21,027 nucleotides of DNA from a virus (Duplodnaviria > Heunggongvirae > Uroviricota > Caudoviricetes), in IMG/VR virus record IMGVR_UViG_2690316152_000009. One strand, 5' to 3'. Positions 1-13,696 of this stretch are shown piece after piece. Each line of letters opens with the position of its first letter. The stretch's first letter is position 1. A program made the position numbers and the translations under genes. Below the pieces are notes generated by a model. The model was given only the letters and a program-made list of their open reading frames with translations, searched no databases and was not told the DNA's origin.

Positions 1-1002
1 TTACCCTCTATTGTCAAAAGGGTTCAATTCAACAGCAGCCTCTAAATGACCTGGAGCAAAATGCGCATAACGCATAGTCATTTTTATATCGCTATGCCCC
101 AGTATTTTTTGCAACACAAGAATATTTCCGCCCCGCATCATAAAATGACTGGCAAACGTGTGACGTAGCACATGAGTTAATTGCCCATCAGGAAGCTCGA
201 TCTTCGCTCTCTTAATTGCAGCGTCAAAAGCCTCATAACATGGTGAAAATAGCGCTCCTCGTTTTTTAGGAAGCATAGCCTGCAATTGAGGTGAAATCGG
301 TACAGTGCGGTTCTTCTTTCCTTTAGTTTTAACAAATGTGATTCGACCGGGCAGTACTTGAGATTGCTTTAATCCTTCTGCTTCACTCCACCGAGCACCC
401 GTCGCAAGCCCAATACGGACAACAACCCCCAAATCTTTATTCCGTGACTCATCACACGCAATCAGAAGGCGTTCAATCTCATCTACATACAGAAACGCCA
501 GTTCCTTTTCTTCCTCACGAAACTTGCGAATACCAGTCAGGGGGTTTTCACCAGACCACTCCCCAAGGCGCTTCAGTTCGGCAAAAACAGCATGTAGATA
601 TGACTGCTCGCGATTAACGGTTGCTTCACTAAGTTTTTTCTTCCCCTTGGGATTCCATTCTCCTGATAGCCTTCTTTCCCGATAAGTAGCAAACATATTT
701 TTGTCAAACTGAGAAGCAAATGGATCTCCCAGCCTGGAACAAATCGCCTCAAGTTTGACTTTGCGCTCTGCACCAGAGGACAAGGTTTTACCGTACATCT
801 CAAACCAACGAGCAATCAACTCAGAAAGACGAGGACCAGAACCATCTTGAAACTCGTCTCCAACTCTACTATTCATTAAACGGCGCTCATAAGAGAGCGC
901 CTCACTTTTTGTCGCAAACTGTTTACGAATGCGTTTTCCCGATGCCCCGTAGGGATAACATTCGCAAAGCCATTTACCTGATGGAATCTTACGAACCGAC
1001 AT
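1..1002 (-). CDS. int: P2-type tyrosine integrase
   Basis: 333-aa ORF; tyrosine-recombinase C-terminal motifs (HVLRHTFASHFMM, LGHSDIKMTMRYAHFAP) and P2 Int-like N-terminus (GKRIRKQF, FVKTKGKKNRTVPIS) recognised from memory of P2 Int; position at prophage end matches the P2 map. Confidence 0.9.
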   Translation of the reverse strand: MSVRKIPSGKWLCECYPYGASGKRIRKQFATKSEALSYERRLMNSRVGDEFQDGSGPRLSELIARWFEMYGKTLSSGAERKVKLEAICSRLGDPFASQFDKNMFATYRERRLSGEWNPKGKKKLSEATVNREQSYLHAVFAELKRLGEWSGENPLTGIRKFREEEKELAFLYVDEIERLLIACDESRNKDLGVVVRIGLATGARWSEAEGLKQSQVLPGRITFVKTKGKKNRTVPISPQLQAMLPKKRGALFSPCYEAFDAAIKRAKIELPDGQLTHVLRHTFASHFMMRGGNILVLQKILGHSDIKMTMRYAHFAPGHLEAAVELNPFDNRG

Positions 1003-5027: not shown

Positions 5028-7850
5028 ATGACGGCAGAGTACATCAGGGACTGGCAACAACCGCGCCACGCAGTGGGGCGTGAAGGAACGGGGATCCCCG
5101 CTCCTGAATCCGCGCTTTCCTCCTGGCTGGATGCCTACCGGGCAGAGAACGAGCGCCGCCAGGAAATGGCTGATGCGGCGTTCTCCGCCACGCCGCTGGG
5201 CAACCTGATTAATAAAAGCCTAGACGCACAGGAAAAACAGGACAAAACAATCACACTGGCAGGAGACGCCAGAAAACAGGCACGCGGCGCGGTAGATGAG
5301 GCCATGGCCTCACTGCGCCTGCTGCCGTCCTATCTGCGCGATCCGCTTATTCGCCACCTCTCCTTCCTGCGCAAAAAACAGGAAGCCGATCGTCAGCAAG
5401 GAAAAAACGCCAGGCAGGCAGAACGCTATGCGCGTGGGACCCTGCGCAAAATATTCGAACGTCTGGAGCGCACCGATCACCGCTGGCTGACATCGGGTTA
5501 TCGCTCCCTTGCCGGACGTGAACGCCTGGACGATTTGATTTACCTGCCGCAACTCAACAAACACCAGATACAGACGCTGGCCACCATGACGGCGGCGATG
5601 TTCAGCAGCACCTTCGAAAAACTCTGCGATGGTTTTGGCGCGACTGATGGCGAGCTGACCATGGATGTAACGCTGAAGGCGTATCAGATGCTGGCCCGCA
5701 TGGCGTTACACTTACACGCCATGCCTCCGCATTATGACGCACTGACAACAGACAAAGACCGGAGGCACGAACCGGACACAGAACTGCTGCCGGGCGCAAT
5801 CCTTCGCCTGACCTGTGCGGAATGGTGGAAACGCAAACTGTGGCTGTTACGTTGCGAGTGGAGAGAAGAACAACTCCGCGCCGCCTGTCTAGTTTCCAGA
5901 AAAACATCGCCCTATCTGAGCCAGGACGCGTTAAGCGAGTTTCGCGCACAGCGCGAGAAAACACGCGATTTCCTGAAAAGTTTCATGCTGGAAAATGAAG
6001 ACGGGTTCACGATTGATCTCGAGACGGTGTATTACGCGGGAGTAAGTAACCCGGTTCACCGTAAGGCAGAAATGATGGCCACCATGAAGGGGCTGGAACT
6101 TCTGGCCGAAGCCCGTGGCGACAAAGCGGTGTTTCTGACTGTCACCTGCCCGTCAAAATACCACGCCACAACGGAGAACGGTCATCCGAATCCCAAATGG
6201 AACGGGGCCACAATGCGCGACTCCAGCGATTACCTGGTTAACACGTTTTTTGCGGCGGTCCGCAAAAAACTGAACCGCGACGACCTGCGCTGGTATGGCA
6301 TCCGCACGGTGGAGCCTCATCATGACGGCACCGTGCACTGGCATATGATGGTCTTTGCACATCCGGAAGAAATCGACACCATTGTGTCCCATACCCGCGA
6401 TATTGCCATTCAGGAAGACCGCCACGAGCTGGGCAATGATATTACTCCGCGCTTTAAGGTGGAGTATGTCGACGGCTCAAAAGGCACGCCAACCAGCTAC
6501 ATCGCCACCTACATCGGAAAGAACCTGGACAGCCGCGCCGTGGATGGCATCGACCCGAAAACGGACAAGCCACGCGTGGACCACGAAACCGGAAAATCAA
6601 TGGCCGAGAGCGTGGAACGCGCCATCGGCTGGGCGCGTCTTCACCGCGTCCGCCAGTTCCAGTTCTTTGGTATCCCCTCCCGTCAGGTATGGCGTGAACT
6701 CCGCCGCCTTGCCAGTCAGATGGCCCGCAACCCGGAAGGTCCACAACGTCTGGAAAATGACGCAATGGATGCGGTACTCGCTGCCGCTGATGCCGGGTGT
6801 TTTGCCACCTACATTGAGAAACAGGGTGGCGTACTTGTTCCACGCAAAGACTACCTGATTCGCACCGCCTACGACCTCGCAGAAGAGCTGAACGATTACG
6901 GCGAGCAAAGCGTACAGATTTACGGGATCTGGTCGCCACAAATCGGGGAATCTTCCCGCGTGTGCACGCACCCGGATAACTGGAAGCTGGTAAGACGTAA
7001 ACCGGAAGCGGAAGACAGCGCCCGCGAAAATGGTTTTGACCTTCAGGGCGGCCCTGCCGCCCCTTGGACTCGTGGCAATAACTGTCCCCGTGTACAGGAA
7101 ACGGACAACAACGGGACAGAACAGCCGGAAGAACGGCCAGCACCGTGGCCGCAGCTCCCTGACGGCGTTGAAGTGAACGAATGGATGCGCTCACTGAAAC
7201 GGCACGAACGCCGGGCGCTGATGCGTTCGCTTCGTGACAAACAGGCAAAAAACAGCAGTGATGAAATGCAGAGCTGGACACAGAGCCGCAAACAGCAGCG
7301 GCCTTTGCCTGATAACCACGAATTACTCGCTAAAGAATGGCGGGAGTCTGCTGAATCTCTCGGCCTGCATATCGGTGAACAGCAGATGCAGCACCTGTTA
7401 CGGGGCGGCAGTCTGTACGTTGACGGCAGCATCATTGCACCGCAGGGATTTGAAATTGTACGCAAACCGGATACCCGACCGGACAGCCGGATCACGCAGC
7501 TCTGGCAGCGCCTGAGCCGTAACCACGGCGTAAGCAGCACGGAGATCCGCCATAACCCGGTCGCCAGCTATCTGGAACAGCTGGGGGCATCAGACCCCGA
7601 AGCCGCCGCACGCCTGGCATCCACACTTCAGCAAGACCAGAACACCATGAAAACACCCGTTACCGTGCTTTCTGACATGCTGCGCGCCATCCGCGACGCA
7701 GAGCACGCACAGAGAATCAGTGAAACCACTGAACGCGCCCGCCGCAAAGCAGACCTGCTGCGAGGTGGCCTGACCAGTGGAAACAAAAAACAGACAGAAA
7801 CGGGATTCACAAATCCCGTAAATGAGCAAAAAACGCGCCGCGATATATGA
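5028..7850 (+). CDS. A: Rolling-circle replication initiator endonuclease (P2 gpA family)
   Basis: 940-aa ORF; HUH motif (VHWHMMVFAH) and dual-tyrosine motif (YIATYIGKN) characteristic of phiX174/P2 A-type Rep proteins; start codon may lie downstream (for example ATG 5167); long low-complexity C-terminal extension. Confidence 0.9.
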   Translation: MTAEYIRDWQQPRHAVGREGTGIPAPESALSSWLDAYRAENERRQEMADAAFSATPLGNLINKSLDAQEKQDKTITLAGDARKQARGAVDEAMASLRLLPSYLRDPLIRHLSFLRKKQEADRQQGKNARQAERYARGTLRKIFERLERTDHRWLTSGYRSLAGRERLDDLIYLPQLNKHQIQTLATMTAAMFSSTFEKLCDGFGATDGELTMDVTLKAYQMLARMALHLHAMPPHYDALTTDKDRRHEPDTELLPGAILRLTCAEWWKRKLWLLRCEWREEQLRAACLVSRKTSPYLSQDALSEFRAQREKTRDFLKSFMLENEDGFTIDLETVYYAGVSNPVHRKAEMMATMKGLELLAEARGDKAVFLTVTCPSKYHATTENGHPNPKWNGATMRDSSDYLVNTFFAAVRKKLNRDDLRWYGIRTVEPHHDGTVHWHMMVFAHPEEIDTIVSHTRDIAIQEDRHELGNDITPRFKVEYVDGSKGTPTSYIATYIGKNLDSRAVDGIDPKTDKPRVDHETGKSMAESVERAIGWARLHRVRQFQFFGIPSRQVWRELRRLASQMARNPEGPQRLENDAMDAVLAAADAGCFATYIEKQGGVLVPRKDYLIRTAYDLAEELNDYGEQSVQIYGIWSPQIGESSRVCTHPDNWKLVRRKPEAEDSARENGFDLQGGPAAPWTRGNNCPRVQETDNNGTEQPEERPAPWPQLPDGVEVNEWMRSLKRHERRALMRSLRDKQAKNSSDEMQSWTQSRKQQRPLPDNHELLAKEWRESAESLGLHIGEQQMQHLLRGGSLYVDGSIIAPQGFEIVRKPDTRPDSRITQLWQRLSRNHGVSSTEIRHNPVASYLEQLGASDPEAAARLASTLQQDQNTMKTPVTVLSDMLRAIRDAEHAQRISETTERARRKADLLRGGLTSGNKKQTETGFTNPVNEQKTRRDI

Positions 7851-7926: not shown

Positions 7927-8328
7927 ATGAAAATTTGTATCGATGACGGCTCCACCAACATCAAGCTGGCATGGACTGAGAACGGCGAACGCCGCAACGC
8001 CATCAGCCCGAACAGCTTCAAGTCGGAATGGTCTGCGCCGTTCGGTGGCACGCAGCCCGCGAACTACATGCTTGATGGCGTGCGCTATGGTTTTGATCCG
8101 GTCAGCGATCGCTTTGTCCAGACAACTGACACGCAATACCAGTACAGCGATGTGAATGTCATTGCCATTCATCACGCGCTGGTCAAATCAGGCATCACGC
8201 CACAGGAGGTGGATGTGGTTGTCACCCTGCCACTGAGCGAGTATTTCGACACAAACGCACAGCCGGACATAGCCAACATCAACCGCAAAAAAAGCCCAGG
8301 ATTCCCGGGGCGGTTCAGAGGAGAGTGA
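7927..8328 (+). pseudogene. ParM/StbA-like actin-family partition ATPase, N-terminal fragment only
   Basis: MKICIDDGSTNIKLAW...ISPNSFK...YSDVNVIAIHHALVKSGI resembles the N-terminal about 125 aa of plasmid ParM/StbA (about 320 aa); reading frame runs into a 22-bp IS terminal repeat and stops. Confidence 0.6.
8296..8317. repeat. Solo 22-bp copy of the IS629-like terminal inverted repeat
   Basis: CCAGGATTCCCGGGGCGGTTCA is identical to 20461-20482 (terminus of the partial IS element); no IS body adjacent. Confidence 0.6.
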
Positions 8329-8330
8329 GA

Positions 8331-8822
8331 ATGCAAATTTCACCGGTTACTCTTCGTGTTGCGAAGGCGTTTATATCCAGACATCACCGACACAATAAAC
8401 CCCCGGTGGGGCATAAATTCAGCATTGGTCTGAGAAATGATGCCGGAGAATTGATAGGTGTGGCGACAGCCGGTAGACCTGTTGCACGACATTTGGACGA
8501 TGGATTAACGCTTGAAGTAAATCGCACATGTACCACAGGAGAACGCAACGCTAACAGCGCACTTTATGGTGCTGTCTGGCGGGCAGCAAAGGCTATGGGT
8601 TATCAACGTTGTATTACGTACACCCAGGCAGATGAATCAGGAGCATCTCTCCGCGCAGCTGGTTTTGTTCGTGTGAAAGAGCTTCCTCCAAGAAAAAGCT
8701 GGGCGGAATCAAGCGTCGCCCTGCGGAGTAAACGCGATCCGGTCGGAAACGGTGGTGTTCCTCGTGTGCTCTGGGAAATCAGGAGAATGAGTACCACTGG
8801 CATTCGCATCAAAGGAGAGTGA
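8331..8822 (+). CDS. Hotspot cargo protein, 163 aa, possibly GNAT-fold (acetyltransferase-like)
   Basis: ATG 8331 preceded by GGAGAG SD; weak by-eye match to GNAT core (segment TTGERNANSALYGAVWRAAKAMGYQRCITYT then LRAAGFVRV); stop TGA lies inside the SD of the next gene. Confidence 0.55.
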   Translation: MQISPVTLRVAKAFISRHHRHNKPPVGHKFSIGLRNDAGELIGVATAGRPVARHLDDGLTLEVNRTCTTGERNANSALYGAVWRAAKAMGYQRCITYTQADESGASLRAAGFVRVKELPPRKSWAESSVALRSKRDPVGNGGVPRVLWEIRRMSTTGIRIKGE

Positions 8823-9091
8823 TATGGCAACTTTGACAAAAAAAGAACAAGCATGGTTGAGCGAATTACAGGACGTTCTTGATCGCTGCCCATCACCGAA
8901 AAAAATTGGTTTTTACACCATTGGCGATAAAAGCATTTACCTGTATGACCTGCGCCGCATGGATGAAATCATGGAGGCTCTTGATAATCGTTCGTCAATG
9001 GATTGGTGTGTTGCTGTCCATGATATGAATGCAGGGTTTGATGAAAAGATTTTGTTCCCCTCATCAGTTGAAAGCACAGCAGGATAAGGAC
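8811..9091 (+). repeat. Direct repeat copy 1 (281 bp) carrying the coupling junction and the whole 87-aa gene
   Basis: Identical to 9497-9777 except one synonymous C/T difference (8889 vs 9575). Confidence 0.9.
8824..9087 (+). CDS. Hotspot cargo protein, 87 aa (copy 1)
   Basis: ATG 2 nt after upstream TGA, SD AAAGGAGAG; MATLTKKEQAWLSELQDVLDRCPSPKK...; no recognised family. Confidence 0.6.
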   Translation: MATLTKKEQAWLSELQDVLDRCPSPKKIGFYTIGDKSIYLYDLRRMDEIMEALDNRSSMDWCVAVHDMNAGFDEKILFPSSVESTAG

Positions 9092-9097
9092 TAACAC

Positions 9098-9508
9098 ATG
9101 ACCACTATTACCAAAGAACGTATTGAATTGTTCATTAAAAATCCGCTTGAAAACGGGCTTACTCGTGACGAACAAATGGAACTGGCACGAATTGCACTGG
9201 CATCGCTGGAAGCAGAGGCAGTTATGTTCTGTATATCAGGACAAAATGTAGATTCAGAAGAACATGTATCAACCAGCAAAGCGGTTGTTGATGCCTGGGT
9301 TGAAGAATGGAATCAGGTTGACGGAAGTCCTGGCGAACCACTGTACAAAACTATGCCACTCTACTATCACGCTGCCTTGCCAGCGCCGGTAGTGCCGGAT
9401 GAAATGTATTGGCAGGATGCGCCAGTTGAAGGCAGCAGCAAAGCGGCTGCATACGCTACAGGCTGGAACGCCTGCCGCGCCGCTATGCTTCATGGGAAAG
9501 GAGAGTGA
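9098..9508 (+). CDS. Hotspot cargo protein, 136 aa, acidic
   Basis: ORF between the two repeat copies; its last codons (KGE-stop) lie in repeat copy 2; no recognised family. Confidence 0.6.
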   Translation: MTTITKERIELFIKNPLENGLTRDEQMELARIALASLEAEAVMFCISGQNVDSEEHVSTSKAVVDAWVEEWNQVDGSPGEPLYKTMPLYYHAALPAPVVPDEMYWQDAPVEGSSKAAAYATGWNACRAAMLHGKGE

Positions 9509-9777
9509 TATGGCAACTTTGACAAAAAAAGAACAAGCATGGTTGAGCGAATTACAGGACGTTCTTGATCGCTGTCCATCACCGAAAAAAATTGGTTTTT
9601 ACACCATTGGCGATAAAAGCATTTACCTGTATGACCTGCGCCGCATGGATGAAATCATGGAGGCTCTTGATAATCGTTCGTCAATGGATTGGTGTGTTGC
9701 TGTCCATGATATGAATGCAGGGTTTGATGAAAAGATTTTGTTCCCCTCATCAGTTGAAAGCACAGCAGGATAAGGAC
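9497..9777 (+). repeat. Direct repeat copy 2 (281 bp)
   Basis: See copy 1; offset 686 bp. Confidence 0.9.
9510..9773 (+). CDS. Hotspot cargo protein, 87 aa (copy 2, identical protein)
   Basis: Identical translation to 8824..9087; the ORF-track ORF 9399..9773 is the same frame read from an upstream in-frame start. Confidence 0.6.
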   Translation: MATLTKKEQAWLSELQDVLDRCPSPKKIGFYTIGDKSIYLYDLRRMDEIMEALDNRSSMDWCVAVHDMNAGFDEKILFPSSVESTAG

Positions 9778-9807
9778 CCAGCAAATATACACAACCTATA
9801 AAACACT

Positions 9808-9834
9808 AAAGCGCCTCAGGGGCGCTTTTTGTTT
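9808..9834 (+). terminator. Rho-independent terminator closing the cargo cassette
   Basis: GC-rich hairpin AGCGCC-tcagg-GGCGCT (9810-9826) followed by TTTTTGTTT. Confidence 0.7.
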
Positions 9835-10359
9835 GCACAAAAGTGCACAAATTTGCACAATTTTTTTGAACGACTTTTTACCCTTCCGGCCCGCATGGCG
9901 GCTGGATCCGTCAAGGATCCGTGCGTGCACAAAAAAACGCGCTTTTTCTGCGCGCAGGTGACGGGGGAACAGCCCGCGTTTCAGGGGGTAAATAGCATTC
10001 CCTGAACGATGTCGCAGAGACACAACAGAATGGCCATATTTCTCACGCTGAGCATGAAAAAGGCGTGAGGGCTTTTGATTTGATGGGGTGAAAGGTAAGG
10101 CCGTCAAAATCGCACTGAGGCAGCGAGAACATACAGTCAACGCGGTGGAATTGCGTAAGAGTCTGACCGTCGATGGTGGCGATAAACTGGAAGGCGTCGT
10201 GAAATTATCTGATTGATACAGGAGCTGGAGAGCCGGGGCATAAATTTTTTATGCCCCGGCGAAGCAGCAGACAAGCGAAGCGCGTCAGCGATACGGCACC
10301 TTGCCGACCATACTTCATAAGTGCAAAATACGAGCAAAGAAATCAATGGAGGCTGTCTT
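9835..10359. other. About 0.5-kb non-coding region, candidate cos/packaging and regulatory region
   Basis: No credible ORF; lies where P2 cos sits (between hotspot and Q); TGCACAA x3 at 10-bp phasing (9834-9860), GGATCCGT x2 (9904-9922), perfect 13-bp-stem palindrome (10232-10260); cos sequence itself not identified. Confidence 0.3.
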
Positions 10360-10884
10360 ATGGTCATTAATTACAAGCAGTTAAGAGAAAAACGGGAGCA
10401 GGTAAAGGAGAGCTTTCGCCGCAATGAAGATCTGACCCCGCTTGTACGCCTTGCCCAGGGCATTGTTGATGCTTATGAAATCTCGCTGGAGCTGCCATCA
10501 CAGACCTGGACAGATAGCGACGGTAATCGCCAGCATTACGTTTCATGCGGACTGGAAGCAGCCGAAGGATTTCGCAGAATGCCTTTATCCCAGATCCCTG
10601 CCGCTACCCCCAAAGCATGGGGCAGCAATGATGAGCGAAAACTGACTTTTAGTATTGAAACGGTGGTTGACGACACACCTGGCGAAGTCGCGTTCGTACA
10701 CACTCCTGTTTCGATCGCAATGTATAACGATGAAATACAGGTTCGCGTTAATAATAATATCGTGCCACTTAAAGAAGGTAATTCACCCTACACCACCGTT
10801 TGTGAAGCCATTCAATATTACGTTCTCTCTGAAATTGATAATCTCAAGCCTGACGGCACCCAGAAAATGGTTCAACTCTGGTAA
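10360..10884 (+). CDS. Stand-alone hotspot ORF, 174 aa, unknown function
   Basis: ATG 10360 with GGAGG SD 7 nt upstream; followed by bidirectional terminator; no recognised motif. Confidence 0.55.
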   Translation: MVINYKQLREKREQVKESFRRNEDLTPLVRLAQGIVDAYEISLELPSQTWTDSDGNRQHYVSCGLEAAEGFRRMPLSQIPAATPKAWGSNDERKLTFSIETVVDDTPGEVAFVHTPVSIAMYNDEIQVRVNNNIVPLKEGNSPYTTVCEAIQYYVLSEIDNLKPDGTQKMVQLW

Positions 10885-10885
10885 A

Positions 10886-10917
10886 AAGGACAGCCCCATC
10901 ACGGGGCTGTTTTTTCA
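10886..10917. terminator. Bidirectional intrinsic terminator between the hotspot ORF and portal gene Q
   Basis: Hairpin CAGCCCC-atcac-GGGGCTG (10891-10909) flanked by AAAAA upstream and TTTTTT downstream; overlaps the last codons of Q. Confidence 0.6.
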
Positions 10918-11945
10918 TCAAGAAGAGCATAAGAGTTAAAACGGATCACCTCTTCGCCAAGCCAGTCATTGATGTGCTTCATAGCCTCCATGACGGGCAT
11001 CAGCTCGTTAATTGCGTAAACCCGCGCTGCCTTCTCCACATCGCCAAACGCACTTTTTTCGCCCGGCATCGCCCCCATCAGTTGCGGCGGAACGCGGTGC
11101 GCAGCCAGCACATCATCACGGGATGCCGCCTTAACATTCATGAATTCATCTTTTGCGGTGATCTGCTGGAACGGCAAAATTTGCACCCCCTCTTTGCCCC
11201 CGTTGGGCGCATGAATGAGCACGTTTTTAAACGCACCACCACCACGTGCCCCCTGTAGCGTTTCTTTCAGGGAGTCCATGCTTTCGCGGTTTACCTGCGC
11301 TGCACCGATGTAGATGATGCACCCGGCGTGGGATCCGTTGTCGTAGTACAGTTTTCTGAACATGTCCGCCGAATGAGAAAGGCTGGCCGAGAGTAATGCG
11401 CCAAGATATTCCGGCATGCCGTAGATTTCCTGGTTAATATCCGGATTCATCAGGTGGCACACTTTGCCAGGACGAAACTGAAACGCGTCCTTGCCATCCT
11501 GCACATACCACCATGATTCAAGATCGCTTCCGCGTCGCATGTATTTCGCCAGGGCGTGCCGTAATTTAAGCGGTTCGCCGAGCATATTGCTTCGAAGCTC
11601 AAGGAATGCGTTACCGAACACAAACCAGTCCAGCGCCAGCGCCGAGAAATCCTGCCGGGAAAGCAGCGGGTGCGGGATGTAGCAACCGAGTAATACATTG
11701 CGCTTAAAGTAAAGCGCAGACTGATGCCAGGACGTTTGCCGGGCAGCTCTTGCCAGACCGTACCAGTCCACCGGGGTTTCATACCACCGCCCGTTATCAG
11801 CACAGTACATATTGTCCAGCAGGTCATGCCCGGTCAGGCGATAAGGACCATCAAATGTGAATGCACTGAGCGATGATTCTTTCCTGAGCGCATCAGCGAG
11901 ATCAATGCGTGAACTCATGCGCACTTTTTTATTTTTTCTGCTCAT
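10899..11945 (-). CDS. Q: Portal protein (P2 gpQ family)
   Basis: 348-aa ORF; size, position and P2-like order (Q-P divergent from O); recognised by similarity to P2-type portal from memory. Confidence 0.85.
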   Translation of the reverse strand: MSRKNKKVRMSSRIDLADALRKESSLSAFTFDGPYRLTGHDLLDNMYCADNGRWYETPVDWYGLARAARQTSWHQSALYFKRNVLLGCYIPHPLLSRQDFSALALDWFVFGNAFLELRSNMLGEPLKLRHALAKYMRRGSDLESWWYVQDGKDAFQFRPGKVCHLMNPDINQEIYGMPEYLGALLSASLSHSADMFRKLYYDNGSHAGCIIYIGAAQVNRESMDSLKETLQGARGGGAFKNVLIHAPNGGKEGVQILPFQQITAKDEFMNVKAASRDDVLAAHRVPPQLMGAMPGEKSAFGDVEKAARVYAINELMPVMEAMKHINDWLGEEVIRFNSYALLDEKTAP

Positions 11946-13696
11946 CAGAACTCCATAACTGTGAAACGCTCGTTTTCTCCTTCGCCGCCAATTGGTTCGT
12001 TAATGACAGCAAGCATGGTTGCCCACGCAAGGTCGCCGTGGCTGATCCCCCTCGCGCGGTCCGTTTCGTAAGTGATAAAGCCGCCCGGTGTTTTCACCTT
12101 ACGCACGGCGTTAAAGGCTGCGACCAGCTCGCGTTCGGCGCGATCGTATTCCCACCGCCCGGCACGCATTATTTGCAGCATTTTCAGTACCAGCGACCGT
12201 TTTGATGACAGCGTGAAGGTGTACGGAATAGCAGCAGGGAAAAACCGTTTCACTATCTGATAAACAGCCTCCCCGTTCCCGCCCGTCACATCAATGCCGA
12301 TGTGTTCCACGTTGTAGCGACACGTGAACTCTTCAATGACTCTGGCCTGTTCTTCAAACTCCAGCCCCTGAACGCGTCGCGTCTCCACCGTTCGAAAACG
12401 GCCACCAGGAACAGACGGAGGAACCACCACGGACACAGCGCCGCTGTCGCCGTTGCCACTGCTGCCGTTTGCGTCATACCCAATCCATACCGGACGATTC
12501 CCCATCGGGCGGGGAGCAAAAGGTTTCCAGTCTTTCCAGTCGTCGTATCCGTCAACACCACAGCCAATCAGGATATTCAGGTTAAATGCCGATTCCCCTT
12601 CGCGGACAAACTCACACATATAGAGATTGAGGAACTCGTCTTCGGTGTTTTCATCACGAATTTCATCAATATCGGTGTGTTTCCAGCCGTGATTAACCAC
12701 ATCTTCCAGCGTGACAATTTGCCGCCACGTCCGGTCAGGGCAGATAAGCCCGTTATGCAGCGTTTTCCAGTCCACAGAAAAACGCTGGCGTTTATGCGTG
12801 GCCTTTTTCTCGTTCCAGCGGTCGCCGTTCCAGTAGGCGTATGCCTCGTGCGTTTCGGTGGATGGCGTGGAGAAGTAGGTGCGCCGCAGTCCGCTGAGGG
12901 TTGCCATAGCGCCAGCCACCTTGCGCAGTTCAGCAAAGCGACTGACCCAGAAAAATTCATCAAAATAAAAATTGCCCGTATAGGACTGCGCCGACGCAGC
13001 AGAAGTGCCGAGAAAATGCAGCTCTGCGCCGTTGGAGAGGATGATTTTATCGCCCCCTTTCAGCTCCACATCAACTTCAGCCGCGGCCTTCTGAATAATG
13101 CTTTTAAACTGGAACGCCTGACGACGCGACGCAGACAAAAAAATCTGGTTACGCTGGTAAGGTTGCGCCACATCGTCACGCAGCGCCATCAGCAGTGCTT
13201 CCTGTGCAAAATACCAGGTCGCGCCAATCTGTCGGGATTTCAGGATCATCCTGTTACGTATCCCGGCTTCCCTGCAAAGGGTCAGGGAGTCAAACCAGCC
13301 CCGCTGATGCCACTCCAGCCTGCTGATGATTTTTTCCCGCAGTGCGACAATCTGTTCCGGCGTGAAATGATTTTTGAGTTTTTTCGCCCGGCCTTTCTTT
13401 CCTGTGGCCGTCGCATCCGGCTGGCCATCATGCATTTTTTTAAGCTGCCGGGTCAGCAGGTCTATTTCCTTAAAGTCACCGCCTGTTTTATTCTGTTTTT
13501 CAGTAAGCTGGATGAGGCGCGCATCGATGGACTGCGTGACACGCTGCACGGGTGGCGTTTCATCCCACTGGTCGCGTTTTTTCCACGCATAAATCGTGTT
13601 CGGGTTTATTCCCATCAGACGTGATATTTCTGCGGGCGGATAACCCTGCCAGTAAAGTTGCCGCGCACGCTGGCGCACAAAAGCGTCCTGAATCAT
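11945..13696 (-). CDS. P: Terminase large (ATPase) subunit (P2 gpP family)
   Basis: 583-aa ORF; ILKSRQIGATWYF ATPase motif typical of P2-type terminases; N-terminal HTH-like region. Confidence 0.9.
   Translation of the reverse strand: MIQDAFVRQRARQLYWQGYPPAEISRLMGINPNTIYAWKKRDQWDETPPVQRVTQSIDARLIQLTEKQNKTGGDFKEIDLLTRQLKKMHDGQPDATATGKKGRAKKLKNHFTPEQIVALREKIISRLEWHQRGWFDSLTLCREAGIRNRMILKSRQIGATWYFAQEALLMALRDDVAQPYQRNQIFLSASRRQAFQFKSIIQKAAAEVDVELKGGDKIILSNGAELHFLGTSAASAQSYTGNFYFDEFFWVSRFAELRKVAGAMATLSGLRRTYFSTPSTETHEAYAYWNGDRWNEKKATHKRQRFSVDWKTLHNGLICPDRTWRQIVTLEDVVNHGWKHTDIDEIRDENTEDEFLNLYMCEFVREGESAFNLNILIGCGVDGYDDWKDWKPFAPRPMGNRPVWIGYDANGSSGNGDSGAVSVVVPPSVPGGRFRTVETRRVQGLEFEEQARVIEEFTCRYNVEHIGIDVTGGNGEAVYQIVKRFFPAAIPYTFTLSSKRSLVLKMLQIMRAGRWEYDRAERELVAAFNAVRKVKTPGGFITYETDRARGISHGDLAWATMLAVINEPIGGEGENERFTVMEF

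Follow-up and report, generated by a model that had tools for sequence, protein, structure and literature searches.

The window analysed here is a 21,027-nt stretch of viral DNA (IMG/VR record IMGVR_UViG_2690316152_000009). Its closest records and its gene order match phage P88, a Xuanwuvirus, and in a domain search a GPA replicase, a small terminase of the P2-type family PF05944 and a portal protein all scored in the window. Judged from its sequence, it is a P88-like (Xuanwuvirus, P2-family) prophage. The region under study, 9835-10359, had been described in a first-pass annotation as a repeat-rich non-coding gap that should, by its position, contain cos. The gap lies between the right-end accessory region that follows gene A and the 3' end of the portal gene Q, which is the place of cos in this family; P2-type terminase genes adjoin it, and the gene order is that of P88, P2 and 186. 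A block spanning 9834-10292 is conserved in 1142 of 5426 complete E. coli genomes (ca. 21%). The block is 100% identical in E. coli strain 4/0. RefSeq annotates nothing under it. The region is effectively non-coding as described, with the caveat that some phage records annotate ORFs in it. The features discussed below are listed in Table 1.

Table 1. Positions of genes and sequence features in the window.
Feature	Position	Strand	Remarks
GPA	5028-7850		
ParM, N-terminal fragment	7927-8328		
Bidirectional intrinsic terminator ending the upstream accessory genes	9808-9828	.	Scan of both strands; outside the conserved cos block
Distal array, three TGCACAA at 10-bp phase	9834-9860	+	Putative gpM recognition sites, by analogy
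T7 tract directly 3' of repeat 3	9861-9867	+	Kept in all TGCAC-type cos sites (alignments)
Imperfect 20-nt GC-rich palindrome in the spacer within cos	9886-9905	.	By eye and from alignment of relatives
GGATCCGT doublet, 11-bp tandem duplication	9904-9922	+	
Proximal (fourth) TGCACAA with A-run	9926-9936	+	72 bp from repeat 3, 31 bp from predicted cosN
Short GC hairpin CGCGC-N7-GCGCG between proximal repeat and cosN	9937-9955	-	Terminator scan
Predicted cosN, cohesive-end sequence GGTGACGGGGGAACAGCCC	~9957-9975	+	P2 homology; nicks uncertain by ~2 nt
Cos-to-hairpin spacer	9976-10231	.	Approximately neutral evolution
Perfect 13+3+13 palindrome (29 nt)	10232-10260	.	Putative ancestral 3' hairpin of the late P-Q (terminase-portal) operon
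Portal 3' UTR remnant, conserved	10261-10288	-	P88 comparison, junction census
Inserted cargo cassette	10289-10912	+	Absent from P88 and most relatives
Weak promoter-like site TTGCCG-17-CAAAAT	10301-10329		By eye, below scan threshold
Cassette ORF	10360-10884		174 aa, phrog_5091, function unknown
Cassette bidirectional terminator	10890-10910		Terminator scan and fold
Portal	10899-11945	-	
gpP, large terminase subunit	11945-13696		
gpM-family small terminase	15809-16609		

The TGCACAA triple reported at 10-bp spacing is present as described (copies at 9834-9840, 9844-9850 and 9854-9860), and so is the recurrence of GTGCACAAA at 9925-9933, in which a fourth TGCACAA copy occupies 9926-9932. The window contains about as many TGCACAA copies as expected (6 observed versus 5.7 expected). 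Their arrangement is unusual: no other 7-mer of the window forms a triple with a fixed period of 8-12 bp, and any such phased 7-mer triple arose in one of 300 first-order Markov simulations. The T7 tract that follows repeat 3 is possibly an intrinsic bend.

The same array is common to P2, 186, satellite P4 and ca. 30 enterobacterial prophages: 72 bp separate a phased TGCAY triple from a fourth TGCAY, and cosN follows the latter at 29-31 bp. In the records of P2, 186 and P4, where the cohesive ends are annotated, the layout consists of three phased TGCAT, a fourth TGCAT with an A-run, a GC hairpin and cosN, and the triples stand at the same distance from cosN as the triple of the window. The interval between repeat 3 and the proximal repeat is 72 bp at 31 of 34 sites selected by their repeats and at 93 of 98 sites selected by cosN, and it holds in P2, 186 and P4 despite unrelated spacer sequences; the proximal repeat is followed by cosN after either 29 or 31 bp. 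TGCAYWAAAA is invariant, or almost so, in every aligned phage and satellite, P2, 186 and P4 included. When 102 unique loci were selected only by cosN, conservation started abruptly at 9834, that is, at repeat 1. BLAST matches in phage records and in E. coli genomes likewise begin at this position, and the sequence upstream of it is not conserved among relatives.

The first-pass annotation had found no P2-type cos by eye. A homologue of the P2 cohesive end is nevertheless present, directly after the fourth repeat and the short GC hairpin. Its sequence is identical to the P2 cohesive end (cosL) at 13 of 19 positions and occupies the same architectural position; a proximal TGCAY with its A-run, a GC-rich segment and a G-rich 19-nt cohesive-end sequence all occur in the window. 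In a MAFFT alignment that included P2, 186, P4 and 34 other sites, the window repeats and the GGTGACGGGGG motif fell onto the repeats and cosN of P2, 186 and P4 to within 2 nt, the register against P2 cosN being ambiguous by ~2 nt. The overhang length in the window was assumed from P2. Intermediate cosN forms in other Enterobacterales (for example, GGCGAGGCGGGGGAGCAAG and GGCGACGGGGGGACAGCGC) link GGTGACGGGGGAACAGCCC to the P2 type, and the cosN of Enterobacter phage phiT5282H is identical to that of the window despite diverged flanks. The region is thus an ordinary viral element, a predicted cos of the known P2-family kind, and the expectation that cos lies in it appears correct.

Phage records provide further information about this site. 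The sequences of phages Chuche and P88_4B11, whose assemblies are probably virion-derived, lack 7 and 5 nt, respectively, solely inside the predicted cosN of an otherwise gap-free 185-nt alignment, and indels confined to cosN are expected if physical DNA ends lie there. A search with a 46-nt cosN query revealed no phage record that starts at the predicted cosN, and none of the 120 viral contigs that carry the site ends at it. The P88_4B11 record starts at the equivalent of window position 9879, a start that is arbitrary because the last bases of the record run straight on from there; the record of phage 500465-2 starts upstream of the block. To our knowledge, packaged-DNA ends are known for no P88-type phage. 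We did not find GGTGACGGGGG in a phage context in the searchable literature. The cohesive-end sequence varies between P2-like lineages, as illustrated by phiRSA1 with GGTGAGGCGGGGTCCAAC (PMC5694545), and by the cos ends of Smp131 (PMC3931495) and SEN4/5 (PMC5261728).

The likeness to the cos sites of P2, 186 and P4 therefore extends from the location between right-end accessory genes and the portal gene to the internal order, in which a G-rich cosN follows TGCAY, an A-run and a GC hairpin, with the distal triple exactly 72 bp upstream; as in P2, genes for P2-type gpM, gpP and gpQ lie alongside. P2, 186 and P4 have 19-nt 5' cohesive ends, the lambda overhang is 12 nt long, and P2 packages from monomeric circles. 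The window differs from the three sites in its repeat unit (TGCACAA rather than TGCAT(T/G)), in the distal spacing (10/10 bp versus 12-13/10), in the distance from the proximal repeat to cosN (31 versus 29 bp) and in its cosN, which is GGTGACGGGGGAACAGCCC with ends predicted from sequence; it also has ~100 extra bp between cos and the portal hairpin. P2 and P4 are identical over a stretch of 55 bp by count, which starts with the proximal TGCAT and runs to GCGCGC, and the proximal repeat of the window corresponds to its first bases. This stretch is presumably the published 55-bp core of the P2/P4 cos, for which PMC5694545 and PMC3931495 cite Ziermann & Calendar (1990). The papers accessible to us describe the 55-bp core and make no mention of the distal repeats.

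The sequence between repeat 3 and the proximal repeat contains several smaller features. The duplication of GGATCCGT pointed out earlier is real (9904-9911 and 9915-9922, 11 bp from start to start); the octamer occurs three times versus 0.55 expected, and 3 of 100 shuffled sequences reach this count. The proximal GGATC (9915-9919), which contains GATC, is kept across P88-type cos sites and the distal copy is specific to Xuanwuvirus; the doublet is a lineage-specific duplication in a spacer of fixed length. At the place of the imperfect GC-rich palindrome, relatives have CCGCC-N4-GGCGG or CGCCAG..CTGGCG. The short GC hairpin in front of cosN reads on the minus strand as a stem followed by U7, with a weak fold (z = -1.2); P2 and P4 have CCGCCC..GGGCGG at the equivalent place, and the hairpin form is not conserved in Novemvirus-type sites.

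In the cos of lambda, cosN is accompanied by cosB with its R3-I1-R2-R1 elements, which are bound by gpNu1 and IHF. The window shares with it the placement of one repeat near the nick and of the others across a fixed-length spacer, all on one side of cosN, a layout that by analogy suggests a small-terminase nucleoprotein assembly positioning the nuclease. There is no sequence homology between the two sites, the small terminases belong to different families (PF05944, that of P2 gpM, in the window), and, unlike in lambda, no IHF consensus was found in the spacer or elsewhere in the cos module. The pac site of P1, a headful packager, consists of clustered GATC-containing hexamers, seven in number, and its cleavage is controlled by Dam methylation. 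The window has two GATC 11 bp apart, ca. 40-50 bp from the predicted cleavage site, a resemblance that we note as a lead only; the cos sites of P2, 186, P4 and the Klebsiella type have no GATC here.

By analogy with P2 and lambda, the gpM small terminase would bind the TGCACAA repeats, of which the three distal copies are spaced by one helical turn each and the proximal copy lies exactly 72 bp (ca. seven turns) on. Bound gpM would position gpP to make staggered nicks ca. 31 bp past the proximal repeat, within GGTGACGGGGGAACAGCCC, and so produce G-rich cohesive ends. We infer from this analogy that the array is a terminase recognition site; a literature search revealed no demonstration of gpM binding to TGCAY for any P2-family phage. 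Whether the repeats are TGCAT or TGCAC goes with the gpM clade, which is no independent evidence, as all other head proteins track it likewise and the identities of gpM and gpP compared with repeat or cosN type simply mirror phylogeny.

In satellite-like elements of ~12 kb, the full module, which begins with repeat 1 and extends slightly beyond cosN, stands in otherwise different flanks. These elements share only the cos module with the phages and encode a primase, an Ogr/Delta protein, a P2-family capsid homologue and integrases. We tentatively propose, as a possibility that we consider rather doubtful, that the four-repeat TGCAY array with its invariant 72-bp interval is the code by which small terminases throughout the P2 family recognise DNA, and that sites with TGCAT and a GGCGAGG-type cosN (P2, 186, P4) and sites with TGCACAA and a GGTGACG-type cosN (P88, Novemvirus) form separate packaging-compatibility groups. 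If this were true, classical P4 satellites would be unable to exploit P88-like phages, which ca. 21% of E. coli genomes contain, and the distinct ~12-kb satellite class, which encodes a P2-family capsid protein of its own, would have adapted in evolution to the P88-type signal. The architecture itself (three repeats, 72 bp, one repeat, 29-31 bp, cosN) provides a cheap and concrete hypothesis for DNA recognition by P2-family terminases, and bears on which helpers can package which satellites.

Short direct repeats at helical phase could also be sites of a replication initiator, that is, true iterons as the first-pass annotation called them, or a parC-like centromere for ParM/ParR, the more so as P88 encodes ParM and a partition protein nearby and the window retains a fragment of the former. 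The same array, however, stands at the same distance from cosN in P2, 186 and P4, where the fetched cos-flanking regions contain no parM or partition gene, and it is also found in the small satellite-like elements. The window keeps intact repeats although its parM is truncated. Phages and satellites whose replication genes differ share the link between array and cosN, and conservation goes with cosN and not with the variable upstream genes. Replication in the P2 family starts at the gpA nick site inside gene A, without iterons. We find an initiator or partition role barely credible; the term iterons is better replaced by conserved repeat array of P2-family cos sites. Transcription control by the repeats and the spacer, as a promoter or operator for the accessory genes, or a small RNA gene located there, is also very improbable. 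The annotated start of P2 old-tin mRNA lies ca. 30 bp from the TGCAT triple, so that the -35 region in P2 should overlap the repeats, and there are several hairpins in 9835-10359. A promoter scan of this interval, however, revealed no σ70-like site; the neighbour of the triple, both in the window and in 186, is a terminator and not a divergent gene (in the window the terminator fold is -16.3 kcal/mol, z = -4.6), and the array is constant between phages whose flanking accessory genes differ.

Beyond cosN, the left arm of cos may include the first ca. 25-45 bp of the spacer, in which there is a G-run (9983-9987). The spacer evolves at approximately the synonymous rate: its diversity is 0.04-0.06, compared with 0.048 at third codon positions of the portal gene. 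RNAalifold analysis of 60 alleles on both strands of 9957-10292 revealed only one-sided changes and no compensatory pairs. A search of Rfam 15, conducted with the whole window at the gathering score and permissively with 9750-10420, produced nothing relevant (best E-value 0.34, far below gathering). Thus, with no Rfam match, no promoter and no compensatory covariation, the small RNA that had been suggested is unsupported. Some phage records annotate a minus-strand ORF in the region, and three (P88, P88_4B11 and PhiR44_2) annotate a 42-aa ORF at 10088-10216 whose 129-nt frame is open in most alleles, with fairly constant N- and C-terminal residues. If this were a real small protein, the region would be coding. 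Variant codons in the frame are nonsynonymous in 43 cases and synonymous in 15 (per-site ratio 0.98), the three codon positions vary equally, and about ten alleles have frameshifts or internal stops; the ORF belongs to no PHROG or other family, is not called by RefSeq, and starts with GTG or TTG with no ribosome-binding site clearly visible by eye upstream. Lacking coding constraint and a family, and disrupted by frameshift and stop alleles, it was rejected as a gene, and we regard a real protein as improbable.

The palindrome at the far end of the spacer is perfect, as had been stated (GCCGGGGCATAAA-TTT-TTTATGCCCCGGC), and, also as stated, it is not followed by a U-run; a T/U run is present on neither side, the sequences that follow being GAAGCAGC on the plus strand and UCUCCAGC on the minus strand. 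It folds at ca. -25 to -34 kcal/mol in context, with z = -5.7 on both strands. It thus has the GC-rich stem-loop of a Rho-independent terminator and not the U-tract, for which reason it does not qualify as a canonical intrinsic terminator; it was also absent from the output of the terminator scan. In P88, the palindrome lies ca. 23 nt past the portal stop codon, and prophages in which cos and spacer are different in sequence also have it behind the late operon, at the portal 3' end. Its diversity is about one-third of that of the flanks, and one compensatory change, T-A to A-T, was observed (in L193). The majority allele, with T at 10233, keeps full pairing only in the plus-strand RNA, which does not favour a purely minus-strand terminator role. 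We read the palindrome as the stem-loop at the 3' end of the late terminase-portal operon, where it would serve in termination, in stabilisation of the 3' end, or in both. The terminators tQ of P2 and tW of 186 are likewise strong GC-rich stem-loops just after the portal stop, between portal and cos; they differ in having a U-tract, and the palindrome of the window differs in being a perfect 29-nt DNA palindrome, split from the portal gene by a cargo cassette with its own terminator.

The perfect symmetry and the missing U-tract would also suit a function at the DNA level: a cruciform, a site for a dimeric protein, a recombination hotspot for cassette exchange or an accessory packaging signal. 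The cargo junction is merely 28 bp away, two alleles extend the palindrome to 19-bp arms through changes in the left flank, and cos-proximal regions of the P2 family are known hotspots of gene exchange (PMC9122126). We nevertheless consider such a function unlikely. The palindrome segregates with the portal 3' end and not with the cos module, being kept where cos and spacer differ, and it is missing from satellites and from phages of the Novemvirus type that have the same cos; only a single cassette type was ever seen at the palindrome/portal junction, the main cargo hotspot lying on the opposite side of cos, and the annotated terminators of P2 and 186 occupy the equivalent position. A junction census revealed only two states, and a multi-cargo hotspot at this junction was rejected.

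Taken from sequence comparison, the repeat-rich gap is most likely the cos of a common E. coli P2-family prophage, followed by a neutral spacer and then by the portal-operon hairpin. We are largely confident in the joint assignment of 9834-~10000 to cos, of 9976-10231 to the spacer and of 10232-10260 to a late-operon 3' stem-loop separated by the cassette. This locates packaging, for a prophage lineage that is among the commonest in E. coli, at a site where annotation pipelines give nothing or spurious small ORFs, and could be of use in the design of P88-based cosmid delivery vectors; the current understanding of phage packaging is unchanged by it. It also marks a fixed boundary for the cos-proximal hotspot of accessory and defence genes in P2-like phages, which makes cargo cassettes easier to delimit.

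The separation of the palindrome from the portal gene results from insertion of a single-gene cassette. The conserved remnant of the portal 3' UTR ends in a relic of the portal stop codon (TCA on the plus strand, 10284-10286). The cassette ORF matched PHROG only, with no Pfam or PADLOC match. A promoter for this downstream ORF had been considered possible in the repeat region, in which the scan gave no site; the sole promoter-like site seen lies in the inserted cassette, outside the conserved repeat region. The cassette also carries a ribosome-binding site and supplies the last five codons of the portal gene, whose product ends in ...LLDEKTAP* in the window and in ...LLDTQPTS* in P88.

From position 9834 onward, the window is predicted to hold a P2-family prophage cos region, together with the orphaned 3' hairpin of the portal operon. 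To read the layout across cos, the right and left genome ends of P2, 186, and P4 were joined. Cohesive ends of 19 nt are annotated in the P2 and 186 records, and the first 19 nt of P4 are the same as in P2. In all three genomes, TGCAT occurs approximately 124, 112, and 102 bp upstream of the cohesive-end (nick) sequence, cosN, and is followed by a fourth TGCAT with AAAA, a GC-rich hairpin, and then cosN. Repeat triple, proximal repeat, GC hairpin, and cosN follow one another in this order in the window as well. The first-pass annotation, made by eye, had rightly expected cos in this region but saw no P2-type cos sequence; a homologue is in fact present, and is listed with the other features in the table.

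Features of the predicted cos region, the adjoining cassette, and the prophage genes around them
Feature	Position	Strand	Description
Distal repeats (1-3)	9834-9860		TGCACAA, three copies
Proximal repeat	9926-9936		TGCACAAAAAAA
GC hairpin	9937-9955		CGCGC-N7-GCGCG
Predicted cosN	9957-9975		GGTGACGGGGGAACAGCCC; matches P2 GGCGAGGCGGGGAAAGCAC at 13/19 positions
Inserted cassette	10289-10912		Brings new portal C-terminus, ...EKTAP*
Promoter-like site in cassette			Weak; read by eye, under scan threshold
Ribosome-binding site in cassette			GGAGG
Cargo ORF	10360-10884		174 aa; phrog_5091, a family of unknown function
Bidirectional terminator in cassette			T-runs on both strands
Integrase	1-1002	-	First gene of the window, then CI-like repressor
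gpA replicase	5028-7850		Then small accessory ORFs, the non-coding gap, and the 174-aa cargo ORF
Portal	10899-11945	-	
Large terminase	11945-13696	-	
Scaffold, capsid, small terminase		+	After large terminase

Approximately 35 enterobacterial sites came from scanning a single genome of each species for the repeat 2-3 pattern, and 120 further sites from scanning viral contigs for the cosN pattern. These sites bridge the sequence gap between the cosN of P2 and that of the window: prophages of Klebsiella, Yokenella, and Brenneria combine TGCAC repeats with GGCGAGGCGGGGGAGCAAG, those of Trabulsiella have GGCGCCGGGGGGACAGCGC or GGCGACGGGGGGACAGCGC at cosN, and most of the remaining sites have the P88-type sequence. 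All sites, including P2, 186, and P4, could be aligned repeat-to-repeat and cosN-to-cosN with MAFFT, with a register ambiguity of ca. 2 nt. Cohesive ends differ among P2-like lineages, as in phiRSA1 (GGTGAGGCGGGGTCCAAC; PMC5694545), Smp131 (PMC3931495), and SEN4/5 (PMC5261728). By our own count, the stretch identical in P2 and P4, from the proximal TGCAT to GCGCGC, is 55 bp long, and is probably the "55-bp core" of cos of Ziermann & Calendar (1990), as cited in PMC5694545 and PMC3931495. Another cosN variant, GGCGACGAGGGAAGGGCGC, was seen with TGCAC-type repeats in a P2-like prophage of E. coli SW070917 (locus L192, 2094-2240). The P2-family cos is a well-known kind of element; this member is new, and is predicted by comparison.

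Repeat 3 and the proximal repeat are 72 bp apart in 31 of 34 sites chosen by their repeats and in 93 of 98 chosen by cosN. P2, 186, and P4 are among these, although their spacer sequences are unrelated to that of the window. The distance from the proximal repeat to cosN is 29 bp in the P2 type and 31 bp in the P88 type. Among loci picked by cosN alone, conservation starts at 9834, base 1 of repeat 1, with unrelated sequence upstream, and BLAST matches in both phage and E. coli collections start at the same base. P4, reported as having only the cos region in common with P2 (PMC9122126), retains the distal triple besides the core, and the P88-type module, extending from repeat 1 to just past cosN, is found in several elements of ca. 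12 kb. From the fixed geometry, the sharp boundary, and the satellites, we infer that the TGCAY array is a putative recognition site of the small terminase. In the cosB of phage lambda, one element is close to the nick site and others lie beyond a fixed spacer; the near and far elements of the TGCAY array are laid out similarly. No IHF consensus was found in the cos module of the window. The comparative architecture, above all the invariant 72-bp interval, also kept in satellites, offers a testable hypothesis on terminase recognition; it leaves the present understanding of phage packaging unchanged.

The satellite-like elements of ca. 12 kb (loci L018, L024, L032, L052, and L037/L046) were found in Kluyvera, Erwinia, Apirhabdus, and Izhakiella. 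They encode an 889-aa Toprim primase-helicase, an Ogr/Delta zinc-finger protein, tyrosine integrases, and a 432-aa homologue of the P2-family major capsid protein (PF05125, E = 1e-81); Psu and Sid were not detected in them with Pfam. Possibly, these are satellites that depend on P2-family phages and bring a capsid protein of their own. One contig, QAKE01000006.1 (L037/L046; 12,723 bp), has a cos region at each end. This contig is labeled as a Bacillota MAG, yet holds an enterobacterial satellite-like element, and at its start (L037) a Nextera adaptor (AGATGTGTA...) directly follows GGTGACGGGGGGACAG, which points to contamination or mis-binning, plus an untrimmed adaptor.

Among the records and viral contigs carrying the site, none was found to end at the predicted cosN. 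In a 185-nt alignment that is elsewhere gap-free, 7 nt are missing from phage Chuche and 5 nt from P88_4B11, in both cases exactly within the predicted cohesive-end sequence, and phage 500465-2 has one additional G at its start. The Chuche assembly is probably virion-derived, since this phage was isolated from mud. Assembly trouble restricted to the predicted cosN is suggestive, being as expected from real DNA ends.

All repeats listed in the first-pass annotation were recovered at the same positions. TGCACAA is about as frequent in the window as expected by chance (6 copies versus 5.7), but it is the sole 7-mer phased three times there, and any such triple arose in only 1 of 300 Markov simulations. 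The doublet sequence GGATCCGT is over-represented (3 versus 0.55 expected), and is an 11-bp tandem duplication (GGATCCGTCAA / GGATCCGTGCG) within the fixed-length spacer. Both copies are kept across Xuanwuvirus, while other P88-type sites carry GGTCTGA...GGATCG there. Only the proximal GGATC, which holds a Dam site, is widely conserved; it is absent from P2, 186, P4, and Klebsiella-type cos sites. By analogy with P1 pac, a methylation role for the conserved Dam site may be speculated upon.

Across ca. 60 Xuanwuvirus-type alleles, variation within the block is highest in the sequence between cosN and the palindrome (9976-10231), with a nucleotide diversity of 0.04-0.06, similar to or above that of portal third codon positions (0.048; 11 loci with both measurable). 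This sequence matched no Rfam family, and neither a promoter nor a compensatory base-pair change was seen in it. A 42-aa ORF annotated here in P88, P88_4B11, and PhiR44_2 was rejected as coding: its codon positions are equally variable, variant codons are nonsynonymous in 43 cases and synonymous in 15 (per-site ratio 0.98), and frameshifts or stops occur in approximately ten alleles. A conserved G-run lies within the first 25-45 bp after cosN, and this part may still belong to cos; satellites and Novemvirus-type phages stay mutually similar up to there.

The palindrome (10232-10260) is perfect, and its fold in context is much stronger than that of shuffled sequence (z = -5.7 for both strands); as noted initially, it is not followed by a U-tract, and this holds for both strands. 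The portal stop codon of P88 is ca. 23 nt away, and tQ of P2 and tW of 186 are annotated at the equivalent relative position. A segment of ca. 70 bp bearing the palindrome is kept right after the late operon in two E. coli prophages with a different cos and spacer, following the portal gene in one and an Ogr/Delta gene downstream of portal in the other; in one of them a T-A pair is changed to A-T and the stem is preserved. Satellites and Novemvirus-type phages that share the cosN of the window lack the palindrome. The palindrome therefore goes with the portal operon and not with cos. The L192 prophage has a variant cosN yet the same portal-side palindrome. The cos module recombines independently of the portal 3' element.

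The palindrome is less variable than its flanks. In its commonest allele, position 10233 is T, giving a G-U pair solely in plus-strand RNA, and the perfect 13-bp form seen in the window is a minority allele. Action at the DNA level is possible, but we favor, with moderate confidence, a late-operon 3' stem-loop, serving as a non-canonical terminator, a stabilizer, and perhaps an obstacle to convergent transcription.

Beyond this stem-loop, homology with P88 ends at GCGCGTCAG (10280-10288, with a relic portal stop) and resumes within the last portal codons. In ca. 80 related loci, the junction between portal and palindrome has two states only, empty or occupied by this cassette; it is a single moron insertion and not a multi-cargo hotspot. 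The variable hotspot of Rousset et al. (PMC9122126) is, in terms of the window, on the opposite side, upstream of repeat 1. The cargo ORF, placed between the portal gene and the ancestral hairpin, had no Pfam or PADLOC match, and diverged alleles of the cassette occur in several viral contigs. Because of its position adjoining cos, it is a candidate accessory or defense gene.

The GPA, portal, and P2-type small terminase families were confirmed in the window with Pfam, and the nearest phage records are P88-like (Xuanwuvirus, Peduoviridae). Of 5426 complete E. coli genomes, 1142 have the block 9834-10292, nearly always as a single chromosomal copy, and in E. coli strain 4/0 it is 100% identical. 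Upstream of it, a 281-bp perfect direct repeat (8811-9091 and 9497-9777) duplicates an 87-aa ORF (phrog_1714) on both sides of ORF 9098-9508; in PhiR44_2, a near-identical phage, a single copy immediately precedes the cos block. Either recombination has recently inserted a cassette here, or the duplication is an artefact of assembly. At 7927-8328, ParM is reduced to its N-terminal 133 aa, followed by a Mom-like ORF (8325-8822; phrog_1384, under the Pfam cut-off), while P88 has a full parM (960 nt) and a partition gene; the partition module appears truncated and replaced. On the minus strand, 20031-20147 matches the ALIL pseudoknot (Rfam RF01497) over its full length, at 120.9 bits. This pseudoknot is the frameshift signal of IS3-family transposases, which would place an inserted IS element within the late region of the prophage.
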